Virus record (IMG/VR): IMGVR_UViG_3300021399_000137
Coordinates: 69,938 to 82,638 of that record
Direction: 5' to 3' (one strand)
Source: a virus
Lineage: Duplodnaviria > Heunggongvirae > Uroviricota > Caudoviricetes
DNA length: 12,701 bases
The notes under the pieces were generated by a model. The model was not told the DNA's origin, ran no database searches, and was given only the letters and a program-made list of their open reading frames with translations. Shown piece after piece: positions 1 through 9,347 of this stretch. How positions within the stretch are numbered: the first letter of the stretch is position 1; the number at the start of each line of letters is the position of its first letter. Both the position numbers and the translations under genes were made by a program.

Positions 1-1006
1 TATCTTCAGACTCACTAATTATTTCATTTTCTGGAATAGTATCTTGATTTAATAAATCTGCTAACTGTTTAATACCTCCAGAAATCCATCCTACATGAGC
101 TACTTTTACATTAAAACTTCTTCCAGTATCATCCTCTGGGTCAAACCACATAATAACATCACCGTGTTTAGGTGAATTAACTACAGCTCTAGGACCTTGA
201 TAAGCATCAAATCCAGTAACTGATTTAACTTCTCCTGAAATCTCATCTGCTAATTCTTGAGCTTGACCTCTTAAATCTTCTAACCAAGCAGACATTTCTT
301 CATCATTATCATCCCATTCTCCAGTCTCATTTAAACTAGATTCTTCGAATTTATCTACTATCCAAGCTTCACAGTTGGAGTCTCTCATTAAGCCTGCTAC
401 AAATTTAGCTGCTTGTTCATAGTTATCAAAGGATTGAACATATTCTCCATTACGATTAAATTCATCATCATAGTATCTTTGCCATACTTCATATCTATCT
501 TCAGACGATTCATCTAATTTTTTGTTATGTTCATCTGCCATTTTATCTTGAGTCTTTTTAGAAACTGTAATCTTTTTAAGATGACCTGTTTTAGTATCTC
601 TAATAGATTTATTTCCATCTTTATCTACTTCTACTTTATCTGCTTCAGTTAAATCTCCAAATGGATTTTCACAGCTAAGATAATAATTATATAATTCTTC
701 AGCATTATCAAAATCTTCAGTTTTTCTATTATTAAAATTACCATCATCATCTTGCTGTGCATCTTCAATAAAACTATCAAAAAAACTACAAACACTTTCA
801 GGATTTATTTTAAATGAATTTTTATAATCATTTATATAGATACTTCCTAATACTATTTCTTGCCTTAATTTCCATAATTGTTCCTTAGTTAAATTATTAG
901 GGTCTATTCTTTCAGCTTCAGTTAATGATTTGACTTTTCTTTTAGCTTTAAATTCTTCTTCTAAACTTTCATTTAAAGCATTAAAAATATTAATATTGGT
1001 CTTCAT
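1..1006 (-). CDS. Acidic modular protein (335 aa visible, runs off the window edge); putative virion internal/head polyprotein. Not in the supplied ORF track
   Basis: Hand translation: ATG at 1006 with GGAGG 9 nt upstream; open to position 2 with no stop (MKTNINIFNALNESLEEEFKAKRKVKSLTEAERID...LNQDTIPENEIISESED). Motifs ALNE|S, SLTE|A, DLTE|A, KLDE|S, SLNE|T and IISE|S fall between apparent domains. Confidence 0.85.
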   Translation of the reverse strand, partial: MKTNINIFNALNESLEEEFKAKRKVKSLTEAERIDPNNLTKEQLWKLRQEIVLGSIYINDYKNSFKINPESVCSFFDSFIEDAQQDDDGNFNNRKTEDFDNAEELYNYYLSCENPFGDLTEADKVEVDKDGNKSIRDTKTGHLKKITVSKKTQDKMADEHNKKLDESSEDRYEVWQRYYDDEFNRNGEYVQSFDNYEQAAKFVAGLMRDSNCEAWIVDKFEESSLNETGEWDDNDEEMSAWLEDLRGQAQELADEISGEVKSVTGFDAYQGPRAVVNSPKHGDVIMWFDPEDDTGRSFNVKVAHVGWISGGIKQLADLLNQDTIPENEIISESED

Positions 1007-2276
1007 CTTCTAAATCCTCCTCTCCATCTATATCTATATTTAAATCTATATCTTCATCTGGTTCTATAGGAGTTTCTTCATTATCTTCTTTTTGTAATTC
1101 TTCAGCTGCTTCAGGATTTATTTCTATTAAACAATTCATCAAGTATTCTACTATAGCTTCATGGTCAGGAGTTAACTCATTACCATATCTAGGATTTAAT
1201 TTATTTATTTCTTCAAAAGTATTAGGAAGTTTTACAAAATCAAATCTTTGTTCTAATTCTGTTTCATTATCTTCTTCTGGTTCTTCAGAAACTTCTATTT
1301 CTTCAGCTTCTTTTAATTTAATACCTTTTTCTTTACAAGCTTTAGCAGCTTTTTCCATAGCTTCCTTATGTCTAGCTAAATTAGAATTAGCATAAAGTTC
1401 TTTATTTCTATAATATTCAGCTTCGTCTTTATCTTTATAAGTTTTTTCATCTGCTTCTTTTAAATCTTCATCAGTATCTATTTTATCCATTATAGGTTCT
1501 TCTTCTGGTATTTCTTCTGAGTTTGCTTCAGATGGATTAGTATCTACTAACATTAAAACGTCATTAGACTCATCAGCTACTTTACCTATAATATAAACAC
1601 TATTGTTTAAATCTTCTTTATCTGTGATTTGATATAAATTTAAGTCTAAATCTACTAATATGTCTCTAAGTTCATTTAATTGTGTATCTAATTTAGACTC
1701 TTCCTCTACTGGATTTTCTTCTTGGTCTTCTTCACTATCTATTGTATCTTCTAATTCTTCTTGATTTTCAATATCTTCTTTAGCTTTATCTTTTAAATCT
1801 TCGATTTCATCGTCTGCTTCTGTTAATTTAGCAGATTCATTTCTTGGAGCAATAGATTTTACATTCATTGTTAAATCTGCATGGTCTGAATTATTCCAAT
1901 TTTCTTTAAATTTATTATAAATTTCTATTGCTTCATCATCACTTGTTGCACCAAATCTTTTTACATCATTTGCATCTACTGTAATAATATAATTGTTTCC
2001 TTTAGAGTCAGTTCCAAAATTGAATTTCATTAAAGACATAAATCCGTCTCTTGCAATCTCAGTAGCATCCCAATATTCTTCAGTAGAGCTTTCTTTTAAT
2101 TTTTTATTTTTATTATTTAAATCGTTACATGCAGCTGTCATTACTTTCTTAGAACCTTTTTGTACAAACTTCTTAGTCTTAGTATCATAAACACCAAATT
2201 TAGCTCCAGTTCCATCGTATTCTCTTACTTGGTATCTATCAGATGCACTTTCTACTAATTTTAATTTCTTATACAT
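990..2276 (-). CDS. Highly acidic 428-aa modular protein; putative head/core (scaffold-like or internal) protein
   Basis: ORF with AGGAG RBS; D/E-rich low-complexity linkers; motifs KLVE|S, KLKE|S, KLTE|A, DLKE|A, KLKE|A. Function is inferred only. Confidence 0.8.
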   Translation of the reverse strand: MYKKLKLVESASDRYQVREYDGTGAKFGVYDTKTKKFVQKGSKKVMTAACNDLNNKNKKLKESSTEEYWDATEIARDGFMSLMKFNFGTDSKGNNYIITVDANDVKRFGATSDDEAIEIYNKFKENWNNSDHADLTMNVKSIAPRNESAKLTEADDEIEDLKDKAKEDIENQEELEDTIDSEEDQEENPVEEESKLDTQLNELRDILVDLDLNLYQITDKEDLNNSVYIIGKVADESNDVLMLVDTNPSEANSEEIPEEEPIMDKIDTDEDLKEADEKTYKDKDEAEYYRNKELYANSNLARHKEAMEKAAKACKEKGIKLKEAEEIEVSEEPEEDNETELEQRFDFVKLPNTFEEINKLNPRYGNELTPDHEAIVEYLMNCLIEINPEAAEELQKEDNEETPIEPDEDIDLNIDIDGEEDLEDEDQY

Positions 2277-2290
2277 TATAAATCTCCTTT

Positions 2291-2674
2291 CTAAAAACTT
2301 CTTTGTGAATAAATACTTCTATAAAACATTTCAATTGTTTTTAACCTCTCTTTTTCATTATAAAGAGGTTTAGACTCTTCTTCTATAATATCTAAAGCAG
2401 ACTTTATTCTTTCTTTCTGTTGTTTTTCTAAACTAGTATTGTTAGCTATTAACTTCATAGCTTTTTTACATTGACTAGAAAAATACTGTACTTCTGTAAT
2501 TAATTCTAATAATCTACTATATTCATATACTATAATATTAAATTGATTAGATATAAACACAGTATCTTGTTGTTTATTAAAGTCTGCCATTTCTATTTTT
2601 GGAGTATTATCTAAATACTCATCTACTTTCTTTATTAAAACATTTAAAGTATTATTTAAAGATGATAAATCCAT
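2291..2674 (-). CDS. Hypothetical helical/coiled-coil protein (127 aa)
   Basis: ORF with GGAGG RBS; heptad-like helical pattern; no recognised family. Confidence 0.75.
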   Translation of the reverse strand: MDLSSLNNTLNVLIKKVDEYLDNTPKIEMADFNKQQDTVFISNQFNIIVYEYSRLLELITEVQYFSSQCKKAMKLIANNTSLEKQQKERIKSALDIIEEESKPLYNEKERLKTIEMFYRSIYSQRSF

Positions 2675-2715
2675 TTTAATATACCTCCATAAGTTACTAT
2701 AAATATTAATATGAA

Positions 2716-4476
2716 TTATTGAACGTTTTTAATTTTTGGTTCATATTTTCTTGCAAACTCTAGTTCTTCTTCTGTTGCATCATATAAACCATCTTTTAAT
2801 GCCATTTTCATTAGTTTTTTAAATACTTCTTCCATCTCTTCATAAAATGGGTCTTCAGCTAAATCTTCATAGTCTTCTTCAGAAGCTTCATCTGGAATTC
2901 CAAAAGCTAACCAATAATTATAAAATAATTCTTCATCATTTACTTTTCTAGCAATGTTATCCATCATTTTTAATGTATTTATTTTTTCTTCTTCTGAGAT
3001 TTGCCTGAGACTTTTATCAGCTTCAGTTACAGTATCTTCTCCAGATTCACCAGAATCCTCTTTAGTATTAAATTCTTCTCCGTCTTTAATAACTTCACAT
3101 CTATCCAAATAGTCTTTATCTGCTTCTTCTTTAGACTCATAAATCTCAGCGTTTTCTATTTCACCCTCAGATAAATTATAGTTCTCACCTACTATATATC
3201 TAGTTCCCTCAGATTTATCTTCTAGCATATAAACGTTACCTTGTTCTTTAATTACTTGTAAATCTTTAACTTCTGTTTGAGCAGCTTCTACTACAGGTTT
3301 CTTTTCTATTTTTTCTGACTCTTCTAAATCATATTTATTAGCTATCATCTTCATTTGATTTTCAACTGTTTCTTCAAAATCATATACTATTTGTTTAGCT
3401 AAATTAGTACCAAAGTTTTCTACTTCTATAGTTCTTAATTGATATAATAGAGATTTCATATCAGAAATAAAATCTTCTGGGTATCCACCTAATCTTTCTG
3501 AATAGTCTTCTTTTAAAGATTTGTCACATCCTTCTTGTAATTCTTTTTCCAAATTAGCGATTTCATCTTCTATAGCAGCTTTCTCATCATCTGCTAATTG
3601 GTCACCGTCTTTTTCTAATTGAGTTTTAAGACTAGCTAATTTATCTTCTTTAGAAGTATCTATAGGAGCAGCTTCTTTTAATTGAGCAACTATAAATTTA
3701 TCAGACAGATTAATATCGTTGTTTGTATTTTTAATAAATTCATTTTTAAATTCATCTGCTTCAGACTTTGTTGGAAATCTAATAGCCTTTTCTTTTTCAT
3801 AAGCTGTAGTTTCATTGTCTATTACATATAAAGGACCTCTATCTGTTTTTATATAAATTATAAAATCTCCATTTTTAGCTTCATTAAGTTTTTTACAATT
3901 GCATTCAGCTAATGGTTTACCACACTCTTTACAGATTTCTTCTCCTTCAGAGTATAAACCTTTTTCTATACTGTCTGCTTTTGCATCTTCTATTTGTCCA
4001 TCTTCTAATTTTTTAATCATTTTTACTTCTCTTAAATCTTCTAACATTTTTCTTAATTCTTCTTTTCCATAGACAACATTATATACAGTACCTGTTTCAG
4101 TACCATCATCGTCTACTCCTACAAACTCCCAAACGTTACCTTCTTCAGCAGCTTGTTTAGCAGCTTCTAATTCTTCTGGGTCTCCACCATATTCTGACTT
4201 ATATCCTTCATCATAGTCTTCTGGATTTTGATAATTCTCAGAATATCTAACTACCATAGCTACACCATCTGGGTCTCTAAAATAAACTTCATCTCCTGAA
4301 ATTACACTATCTAAAGCTGAAGAGGCATCTTCTGTTAGAACATAATTCTTTTCTTCTTTTAATTCTTCTACCCTAACATCAGAACCTTCCATAAATACTT
4401 TTTTCTTAATTTGAATAGCTTTTGTTTCACTTTCATTAAGCTCATTCATTAAATTAAAACTAAGTTTGTTTAACAT
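2716..4476 (-). CDS. Acidic 586-aa modular protein; putative processed virion internal polyprotein containing a CxxC-x6-CxC motif
   Basis: ORF with AAGGAG RBS; motifs ELNE|S, VLTE|D, KLNE|A, QLKE|A, SLKE|D, DLEE|S, PVVE|A, TVTE|A; CKECGKPLAECNC at aa 182-194. Confidence 0.8.
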   Translation of the reverse strand: MLNKLSFNLMNELNESETKAIQIKKKVFMEGSDVRVEELKEEKNYVLTEDASSALDSVISGDEVYFRDPDGVAMVVRYSENYQNPEDYDEGYKSEYGGDPEELEAAKQAAEEGNVWEFVGVDDDGTETGTVYNVVYGKEELRKMLEDLREVKMIKKLEDGQIEDAKADSIEKGLYSEGEEICKECGKPLAECNCKKLNEAKNGDFIIYIKTDRGPLYVIDNETTAYEKEKAIRFPTKSEADEFKNEFIKNTNNDINLSDKFIVAQLKEAAPIDTSKEDKLASLKTQLEKDGDQLADDEKAAIEDEIANLEKELQEGCDKSLKEDYSERLGGYPEDFISDMKSLLYQLRTIEVENFGTNLAKQIVYDFEETVENQMKMIANKYDLEESEKIEKKPVVEAAQTEVKDLQVIKEQGNVYMLEDKSEGTRYIVGENYNLSEGEIENAEIYESKEEADKDYLDRCEVIKDGEEFNTKEDSGESGEDTVTEADKSLRQISEEEKINTLKMMDNIARKVNDEELFYNYWLAFGIPDEASEEDYEDLAEDPFYEEMEEVFKKLMKMALKDGLYDATEEELEFARKYEPKIKNVQ

Positions 4477-4494: not shown

Positions 4495-4770
4495 CTAAAC
4501 TTTTTCTAAAATCATTCCTACAGCTGTTTTTTCTTCTCCTTGTATAGATAATATGTCAAAATAAGGTTTTATTATAATGTCAAATCCTGAAGGTGTTGCT
4601 AAACCTCTAGCTGTAATTACAGCTTTTACAGCCTGATTTACTGCAGGAACTCCAACACATTTTAATTCTAGCTTATCTACGTTTTTAATATTAGCATAGA
4701 TGGCTGCAGCTAGTTTTTTAATGTCAGTATCTTTTCCTACTCTAAACTCTGGTATGTTCTTTACTTCCAT
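4495..4770 (-). CDS. spoVS: Stage V sporulation protein S (SpoVS) homologue
   Basis: CVGVPAVNQAVKAVITARGLATPSGFDIIIKPYFDILSIQGEEKTAVGMILE matches the SpoVS signature as I recall it from B. subtilis (AIGAGALNQAVKAVAIARGFVAPSGVDLICIPAFTDIQIDGEERTAIKLIV); length is typical; GGAGG RBS. Confidence 0.9.
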   Translation of the reverse strand: MEVKNIPEFRVGKDTDIKKLAAAIYANIKNVDKLELKCVGVPAVNQAVKAVITARGLATPSGFDIIIKPYFDILSIQGEEKTAVGMILEKV

Positions 4771-8791: not shown

Positions 8792-9067
8792 TTATAATGC
8801 TAAATTAGTAAGATAGTCATCTAAATTTAATAATAAATCTACATCGTTTAAATCTTCTTCTTTAATGCCTAATTTAATTAATTCAGATTTTTCCCAATTT
8901 ATTCTGTCATCGTCGTCATCCCAAGCATTAGCATTTATCATTCGACTTATTTTATCTATTAAAGGTTTTAAATATTCAGGAATTTCTGTATTATTCCAAT
9001 CTACATTATTCATATCATTAACTAATTTGTCTATACTAATTTCTTTATTTAATATTATCTGACTCAT
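8792..9067 (-). CDS. Hypothetical acidic protein (91 aa); may be a frameshifted continuation of 9045..9347
   Basis: ORF with no clear SD sequence; its ATG lies 23 nt inside the upstream gene. Confidence 0.65.
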   Translation of the reverse strand: MSQIILNKEISIDKLVNDMNNVDWNNTEIPEYLKPLIDKISRMINANAWDDDDDRINWEKSELIKLGIKEEDLNDVDLLLNLDDYLTNLAL

Positions 9068-9347
9068 CTAAATACTCAGCATTATCTTCAAATGTAGTAG
9101 AAACTAAACTTTTAACTGTATCTAAATCGTCACCATCCATTTCACATTGGTCAAATACTGATTGAACTTCATTCTCTAAAACTCCATCTGGAATTTCGTT
9201 TATTAATTGTTGAATATCATCCATATCTTCACAACTATCTAGTCTTTGTGCAAAGTTTTCTGCATCCTCTATAGTAATAGACTCTTTTAAATTTTCTTCT
9301 TTTAAATTATTTTGTATACTTTCAAATAATTTTCTTGTTTCACTCAT
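9045..9347 (-). CDS. Leader-bearing, very acidic small protein (100 aa)
   Basis: N-terminus MSETRKLFESIQNNLKE; D/E-rich helical body; AAGGAGG RBS. Confidence 0.85.
   Translation of the reverse strand: MSETRKLFESIQNNLKEENLKESITIEDAENFAQRLDSCEDMDDIQQLINEIPDGVLENEVQSVFDQCEMDGDDLDTVKSLVSTTFEDNAEYLDESDNIK

Follow-up and report, generated by a model that had tools for sequence, protein, structure and literature searches.

Genes A, B, and C and their leaders

The stretch of DNA analyzed here, referred to as the window, comprises 12,701 nucleotides (nt) of a Caudoviricetes virus, an uncultured gut phage (IMG/VR record IMGVR_UViG_3300021399_000137, genome positions 69938-82638 of an 82.6-kb contig) and carries every one of its genes on the minus strand. 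The contig is a fragment, about 65% complete, and its relatives measure 120-133 kb. At the start of the window lie three genes, here called A, B, and C, whose products are acidic (D+E 22-28%, K+R 12-13%) and built from small modules and short motifs of the form [LVI]xE[SAD]. A sequence-only reading of the window had suggested that these are polyproteins loaded into the head of the phage and cut at the motifs by the prohead protease. The three open reading frames, their acidity, and their approximately 20 motifs were all borne out, except that A runs past the window; its full length is 949 amino acids (aa; genome 68094-70943). The genes and their N-terminal leaders are listed below by window position, with an arrow at the putative scissile bond.

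2-1006, minus strand: gene A, N-terminal part; 335 of 949 aa lie inside the window and the remainder beyond its edge
968-1006, minus strand: leader of A, MKTNINIFNALNE↓S, 13 aa; L11, N12, E13, and S14 nearly invariant in 52 homologues
990-2276, minus strand: gene B, 428 aa, D+E 28%
2250-2276, minus strand: leader of B, MYKKLKLVE↓S, 9 aa; retained in homologues while the first module fused directly behind it differs
2716-4476, minus strand: gene C, 586 aa
4432-4476, minus strand: leader of C, MLNKLSFNLMNELNE↓S, 15 aa; conserved across the C family

The N-terminal third of A is modular and variable and is followed by conserved anchor domains at residues 376-638 and 709-949. B consists of modules 10-62, 63-153, 154-274, 275-323, and 324-428, and C of modules 16-49, 50-199, 200-268, 269-323, 324-386, 398-485 (an invariant anchor), and 486-586. 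Each chain holds five to ten modules, and the architectures are reshuffled among relatives. None of the three genes contains an in-frame CGG triplet; the few CGG triplets present are all out of frame, so that the CGG recoding reported for this phage group leaves the three genes unaffected.

The N-termini of A, B, and C had been taken for loose echoes of the leader shared by five neighboring genes. Instead, they fall into three separate, strongly conserved classes, one per family, with the consensus sequences MKTNINIFNxLNE↓S (A family, 13 aa), M[YH][KR]xLKLxxE↓S (B family, 9-10 aa), and MLNKLSxNLMNELNE↓[SA] (C family, 15 aa). The leaders of A, B, and C themselves, of 13, 9, and 15 aa, end in LNE↓S, LVE↓S, and LNE↓S, respectively. 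Two further proteins with leader-like sequences were encountered elsewhere. A 354-aa protein encoded in the structural region (L003:1262-2326, minus strand; genome 20262-21326) starts with the leader-like MKRESLNIISSLNE↓S and ends in a module that is bounded by LNE↓G and IEE↓S and homologous to C-family modules; by its sequence, it would seem to be a fourth cargo polyprotein, one encoded beyond the window. In a relative from wolf gut, a 253-aa protein (L008:3158-3919, plus strand) combines a leader of the five-gene type, MKKSLVE↓SIQDNLNE↓D, with an internal half-leader, PGLSE↓SIQNNLNE↓T, and looks like a recent fusion of two leader-plus-cargo genes.

Motif excess and position at module junctions

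As the sequence-only reading had cautioned, glutamate-rich proteins can produce such motifs by chance, and we therefore compared the observed counts with those of 5000 shuffles preserving the composition of each protein. The parts of A, B, and C within the window contain 20 [LVI]xE[SAD] motifs (5, 5, and 10, respectively) versus 8.07 ± 2.69 expected, and 0/5000 shuffles reached 20. For the narrower LxE[SAD], the count was 16 versus 3.27 expected. The enrichment persisted when the first 20 residues were excluded, with 17 versus 7.7 for [LVI]xE[SAD] (p 0.002) and 13 versus 3.0 for LxE[SAD], while the control motif [LVI]xD[SAD] occurred as often as expected (5 versus 5.2). On the other hand, [LVI]xE followed by a P1′ residue (the first after the scissile bond) other than S, A, or D was under-represented in the three proteins (20 versus 29.5 expected), a depletion that fits selection against stray protease sites. 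The motif was not enriched in the helicase and the other proteins of the window, and all genes below genome position 68000, which served as the own-genome control, yielded 30 motifs versus 23.5 expected. Genes neighboring the corresponding loci of relatives from human gut (L006) and wolf gut (L008) are not valid as a control because further leader-bearing cargo genes are among them; the own-genome control is valid. A, B, and C taken together with the five neighboring leader genes contain 31 motifs versus about 7.6 expected, and the motif excess is confined to this region. Chance in glutamate-rich sequence thus fails as a general explanation, since the shuffles and the control motifs exclude composition, but it does apply to a minority of sites: roughly 14-16 of the 20 motifs are credible cleavage sites and the remainder chance.

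We then related the motifs to protein structure and to homologue alignments. AlphaFold models were built from homologue alignments for A and C and were read by the predicted local distance difference test (pLDDT). The junction sites are listed below, P3 and P1 denoting the third and the first residue before the scissile bond, and HSP a high-scoring segment pair in the homologue searches.

914-925, minus strand: A, LTE↓A, aa 28-31, low pLDDT; homologues have L/I/V at P3 and Glu at P1 in 42/43
641-652, minus strand: A, LTE↓A, aa 119-122, low pLDDT; homologues have Glu at P1 in 47/50 and A/S at P1′
506-517, minus strand: A, LDE↓S, aa 164-167, low pLDDT; 20 HSP ends
323-334, minus strand: A, LNE↓T, aa 225-228, low pLDDT; 23 HSP starts; homologues have Glu at P1 in 33/33
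8-19, minus strand: A, ISE↓S, aa 330-333; marks a module boundary, with 55 HSP starts and ends; pLDDT marginal
2088-2099, minus strand: B, LKE↓S, aa 60-63; 26 HSP starts; context KNKKLKE↓S like the B-type leader
1815-1826, minus strand: B, LTE↓A, aa 151-154; in 120 homologues, P3 is L in 89, I in 4, and M in 4, and P1 is E in 87
1452-1463, minus strand: B, LKE↓A, aa 272-275; precedes a 49-aa module also present in A- and C-family proteins
1305-1316, minus strand: B, LKE↓A, aa 321-324; 24 HSP ends
4327-4338, minus strand: C, LTE↓D, aa 47-50, low pLDDT; 28 HSP ends
3877-3888, minus strand: C, LNE↓A, aa 197-200; 11 B-family proteins have the next module, GDFIIYIKTDRGPLY, immediately after the B leader
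3670-3681, minus strand: C, LKE↓A, aa 266-269, low pLDDT; homologues have Glu at P1 in 42/45
3505-3516, minus strand: C, LKE↓D, aa 321-324, low pLDDT, after a coiled-coil module
3283-3327, minus strand: C, double junction LEE↓S ... VVE↓A, aa 384-398, before the invariant module
3019-3030, minus strand: C, VTE↓A, aa 483-486, low pLDDT, after the invariant module

In the model of C, confident domains (approximately residues 51-153, 273-316, 329-386, 403-461, and 492-586) alternate with segments of pLDDT<50. The N-terminal third of A is poorly ordered; a confident domain at 236-332 and conserved domains at 409-592, 709-775, and 838-949 follow. Many modules of the two proteins, which measure 45-150 aa, fold with pLDDT 80-93. 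In full-length A and C, 13/20 [LVI]xE[SAD] motifs have their P1 Glu at pLDDT<50, in segments that account for 29% of the residues (binomial p 8e-4); shuffling the linker residues alone predicted 2.7 sites there. By comparison, [LVI]xE with another P1′ residue displayed no linker bias (7/29 in pLDDT<50). In line with the sequence-only reading, these 13 sites fall in low-pLDDT linkers; C 445, C 539, and A 944 lie inside folded domains.

Conservation separates the two groups. In the homologue columns of the linker sites, P3 stays L/I/V/M, P1 stays Glu with rare exceptions of Asp, and P1′ is S/A in most cases, whereas P2 varies freely; conserved linker sites are A 11, 28, 119, 225, 330, 706, and 814, C 13, 266, and 395, and B 60 and 151. 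The folded-domain sites A 944, C 445, and C 539 are not conserved in homologues and, judged by these alignments, are chance occurrences. A fourth clearly folded-domain site, A 519 (LQE↓A), lies in a folded conserved core and is invariant. The surroundings of the invariant module of C are especially regular. Upstream of residues 403-460, 92/96 distinct homologue contexts carry [LVI]xE↓[SADG], typically as KP-I/V-x-E↓AE, while downstream of the module the motif is present if another module follows and absent if the protein ends there. At the DNA level, variation among homologues affects P2 and the flanks as well as the choice of codon for Leu, Ser, and Ala. A search for a joint fixed in the DNA found none, and the constraint therefore acts on the peptide, so that a protease site fits better than a recombination joint.

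Module exchange among relatives

More than 130-280 metagenomic relatives were found per protein, and their coverage is patchy, with, for example, 96% identity across one third of C. On A, B, and C as queries, HSP ends cluster at the motifs. For a quantitative comparison, only HSP ends falling within both partners were counted as breakpoints, and the HSPs had to reach 60% identity; breakpoints from all HSPs were too noisy. Among 360 proteins, 36-40% of these breakpoints fell within 6 aa of [LVI]xE↓[SAG] versus 12% of random positions, a 3.0- to 3.4-fold excess, while four control motifs gave ratios of 0.6-1.3. Both motif conservation and module swapping among homologues, the checks named in the sequence-only reading, are seen at the junctions themselves. 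Low pLDDT may partly stem from alignment breaks, and the structural test and the breakpoint test are therefore not independent.

Individual modules move between the three families. The module at A 228-332 is shared by 23 proteins of the A family and 31 of the C family, in which its position ranges from 38 to 647, and the B 275-323 module occurs in 20 A-family and 16 C-family proteins; the C 200-268 module is the one that follows the B leader directly. The module behind the A junction at aa 164-167 starts with SSEDRYEV, resembling SASDRYQV of B. Each gene family nevertheless retains its own leader and anchor modules. That modules are swapped, added, and dropped at the junctions and between the three genes is as expected for counter-defense cargo.

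Modules also exist on their own, as illustrated by one gene of the window.

9045-9347, minus strand: stand-alone leader-plus-cargo gene, 100 aa; cargo aa 22-100, beginning after LKE↓S

The cargo of this gene is 55-65% identical to internal modules of A- and C-family polyproteins of other phages. These embedded copies start exactly after x-E↓ (YLKE↓SVTI, SMNE↓SVTI) and end at LEE↓S, LTE↓A, or LDE↓A, suggesting that one unit could be delivered either alone or as a bead on a string, with the same predicted mature ends. Similarly, the N-terminal domain of the ArdA-carrying leader protein recurs as an internal polyprotein module. As regards the polyvalent-protein aspect of the sequence-only reading, the polyvalent domain LPD11 turned up in several homologues of A and of B, and DUF7678 is present in some homologues as well. 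In the A, B, and C of the window itself, neither a hallmark domain of polyvalent proteins (LPDs, MPTase, ART, ParB-like, and others) nor a peptidase family was detected.

Beyond the metagenomic relatives, matches were scarce. A tblastn search of 50,697 GenBank phage records returned for A a single 44-aa module match, in Bacteroides phage BS-TP1, and for C neither that search nor a pattern-based IMG/VR search revealed a homologue. The matching module of A (approximately aa 39-82) is 64% identical to the N terminus of BS-TP1 gp73 (L009:2465-3019), a stand-alone, leaderless, 184-aa protein of a cultured Bacteroides phage; this module family thus crosses distant phage groups. A Pfam search with 18 single modules at E<=0.5 gave only noise, a Foldseek search of the whole A and C models against PDB gave nothing at E<=0.001, and the ESM Atlas offered no usable functional lead for the modules. 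In the AlphaFold database, there were small DUF-type matches only, and only for A 839-949; this C-terminal domain of A resembles small domains of the DUF3846/DUF6329 type.

The prohead protease and the proposed processing

The sequence-only reading presupposed a prohead protease in the same genome, and a gp21-family member was indeed found. A T4-type head module at genome 25-32 kb encodes a portal (PF07230), a major capsid protein (PF07068), and the protease (genome 26696-27424, minus strand; PF03420, 60 bits; phrog_207, 7e-45). Its alignment with T4 gp21 (PDB 5JBL) spans GESNHP and SSRGAGS, the catalytic His and Ser motifs; the catalytic residues of T4 gp21 are H85/S140, and the enzyme cleaves after Glu, preferring I/L-x-E (PMC12991175). 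In T4-type cargo, the capsid-targeting sequence (CTS) is an N-terminal propeptide of about 10-20 aa with I/L-x-E at its end. Processing of the T4 CTS depends on positions 8 and 10 (P3 and P1) and is prevented by Asp at P1 (PMC9026906). In the phage studied here, LKE↓G, LKE↓S, and LTE↓A precede the gp23 core of the major capsid protein; all three sites are kept in nine relatives, the third with L/I/M at P3 and A/S at P1′. The protease itself (L003:7696-8424) has one motif near its N terminus and five in its C-terminal 60-aa tail, which fits autoprocessing as in T4, phiKZ, and SPN3US. Taken with the specificity of the gp21 family, the capsid and protease sites make the motif a reasonable guess at the specificity of this enzyme.

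Each check of the sequence-only reading that could be made computationally favored it, on evidence that is indirect and sequence-based. On the basis of these sequence features, we consider it probable that A, B, and C are head precursor cargo whose leaders target them, whose joints are cut by the gp21-type protease, and whose modules enter the host. The family-specific N-terminal leader (9-15 aa, ending in L-x-E↓S) would bring the chain into the prohead core, like the T4 CTS. The prohead protease would remove the leader and would also cut the exposed [L/I/V]-x-E↓[S/A] joints between modules. One targeting signal could thereby load a string of small acidic proteins of about 45-150 aa together with a conserved anchor domain, and the resulting module-sized proteins would stay in the head and most likely be ejected with the DNA like T4 Ip1-3 and Alt. 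More tentatively, although we regard it as plausible, widespread animal-gut phages of ~125 kb may use polyprotein processing inside the capsid to yield a combinatorial, quickly reshuffled set of injected counter-defense proteins from undescribed domain families.

Several points weigh against this proposal. A, B, and C are located at genome 68-74 kb, ~40 kb from the head module, and adjoin genes of early appearance (helicase-HTH, SpoVS, ArdA); scanning for TATAAATA, the late promoter of T4, found no late promoter and was uninformative. Pfam and PHROG searches detected no sequence homology of the three proteins to T4 Ip1-3 or Alt, and no module of A, B, or C in the window had a match in Pfam, PHROG, or PDB, which makes the word effector a guess. 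In full-length A and C, 7/20 motifs are not located in pLDDT<50 segments, pLDDT may itself be lowered where alignments break at shuffling points, and the homologues are related to one another, so that their counts do not represent independent events.

Three other explanations have to be weighed. The chains might lose only their N-terminal leaders and be packaged intact as polyvalent proteins, the internal motifs being fusion leftovers or a generic linker. For polyvalent proteins such as N4 vRNAP, packaging takes place without processing (PMC5512222), the internal KNKKLKE↓S of B does resemble the B leader, and the 253-aa protein from wolf gut preserves the half-leader PGLSE↓SIQNNLNE↓T. However, a decaying remnant should lose P3, P1, and P1′, all of which are kept among homologues of 40-60% identity that differ at P2 and in the flanks, nor should it vanish exactly where a module ends the protein; moreover, if the leader site is cut, identical exposed linker sites should be cut too. 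We therefore regard this explanation as unlikely. An origin of A, B, and C as scaffold or core components comparable to T4 gp22, gp67, and gp68 or to giant-phage propeptides, degraded to peptides that leave the head or stay as acidic counter-ions, would account for the acidity, the many cleavage motifs, and the coiled-coil modules. T4 gp22, gp67, and gp68 are degraded to small peptides (PMC9958956), and a distant cultured relative, Bacillus phage vB_BceM-HSE3, has a motif-dense protease-scaffold fusion. Yet the modules are folded domains of 45-150 aa, many with pLDDT 80-93, they vary between close relatives and also occur in stand-alone leader genes beside ArdA, homologues carry LPD11, and the head module contains a separate K/E-rich scaffold candidate (genome 27744-28631); we give this possibility little credence.

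It is very improbable, in our assessment, that A, B, and C remain unpackaged and that the motif serves something else, such as another protease or a DNA recombination joint, or arises as a by-product of composition. The early-type gene neighborhood and the late promoter scan, uninformative as it was, would agree with this, but the shuffles and control motifs exclude composition, the junction DNA is not fixed, and the motif is the known specificity of the encoded protease family and also ends the capsid propeptide region.

The proposed arrangement of leader-headed cargo cut at its joints shares features with several known systems. As in T4 Ip1-3 and Alt, the N-terminal leader is short and has hydrophobic-x-Glu at its end, the genome encodes a gp21-family protease, unrelated cargoes of diverse kinds stand behind a conserved leader, the genes form a cluster apart from the head genes, and anti-restriction cargo is present, here as ArdA in neighboring leader genes (PMC9026906, PMC12373910, PMC3012670); T4 injects its anti-restriction internal proteins (PMC12373910, PMC3012670). 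The T4 Ip1-3 proteins, however, represent a single cargo with one cut (Alt is also cut near its C terminus), whereas A, B, and C comprise up to about 8-10 modules with a site at each junction, and the leaders found here (9-15 aa, at least four classes) share only the general form with the T4 CTS. T4 internal proteins are also mostly basic, unlike the acidic A, B, and C. In the giant phages phiKZ, 201phi2-1, and SPN3US, inner-body or ejection proteins are likewise cut after Glu at several sites by a gp21-related protease; these proteins form paralogous families and are ejected into the host (PMC5694885, PMC10052503, PMC9026906). Their sites have A/S/G at P3 instead of L/I/V, and their multiple cuts mainly clear long N-terminal propeptides, whereas the sites of A, B, and C separate independent folded modules. 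The giant-phage genomes exceed 200 kb, as opposed to about 120-130 kb for the relatives of the present phage, and no homology between the two, such as to phiKZ gp93-97 or SPN3US gp53/54, was detected. Polyvalent proteins also combine many (two to fifteen) unrelated, shuffled domains in one chain, and their delivery with DNA is predicted (PMC5512222). Their release has been proposed to occur via embedded peptidase domains (MPTase and others) (PMC5512222), whereas A, B, and C start with a CTS-like leader and carry at their joints a site for a prohead protease acting in trans. Finally, the T4 core proteins gp22, gp67, and gp68 are acidic and cut many times at I/L-x-E by gp21 (PMC9958956), but they are conserved, essential or structural, and encoded in the head module, between portal and capsid genes, while A, B, and C are variable, modular, and encoded elsewhere. 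Our literature searches turned up no account of polyproteins that start with a leader and have prohead-protease joints.

Should cleavage occur at the junctions, the T4 CTS/gp21 paradigm would widen from one leader and one cargo to one leader and many cargoes, and polyvalent proteins would gain a release route that needs no embedded peptidase. The combination of a leader, [LIV]-x-E↓[SA] joints, and a gp21-type protease would then serve as a simple rule to predict injected phage proteins in metagenomes and could help in designing T4-type delivery particles that are loaded with several cargoes. The modules would constitute a large pool of small, fast-evolving, probably anti-defense proteins without known families, and the exact mature ends needed to express and screen them would follow from the joints.

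Further sites of the same kind were noted in the head module and in a cultured phage. In the portal (L003:10997-12979, minus strand), LKE↓S, LTE↓D, IFE↓S, and LKE↓G cluster in an acidic stretch at aa ~150-230, which, by its sequence, may be a processed insertion. The closest cultured capsid relative is HSE3 (35% identity), whose capsid propeptide contains VNE↓A and MTE↓S and whose gp062 (L019:4200-5879) is the protease-scaffold fusion mentioned above, its scaffold half being dense in [LVI]xE↓[SA]. HSE3 is a possible laboratory model for the specificity of the protease.

The gene order SpoVS, C-like, 127 aa, B-like, A-like is kept in the human-gut and the wolf-gut contigs. The 127-aa protein encoded between B and C (window 2291-2674, minus strand) is non-acidic and free of the motif, and proteins of equal length occupy the same place in the human-gut (L006 8015-8398) and wolf-gut (L008 8670-9053) relatives. 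It had no family match, and it could be a candidate assembly or loading factor for the cargo genes. The SpoVS homologue (PF04232, 1e-21; window 4495-4770, minus strand) lies 18 nt upstream of C, is syntenic in relatives, and hints at a spore-forming Bacillota host.

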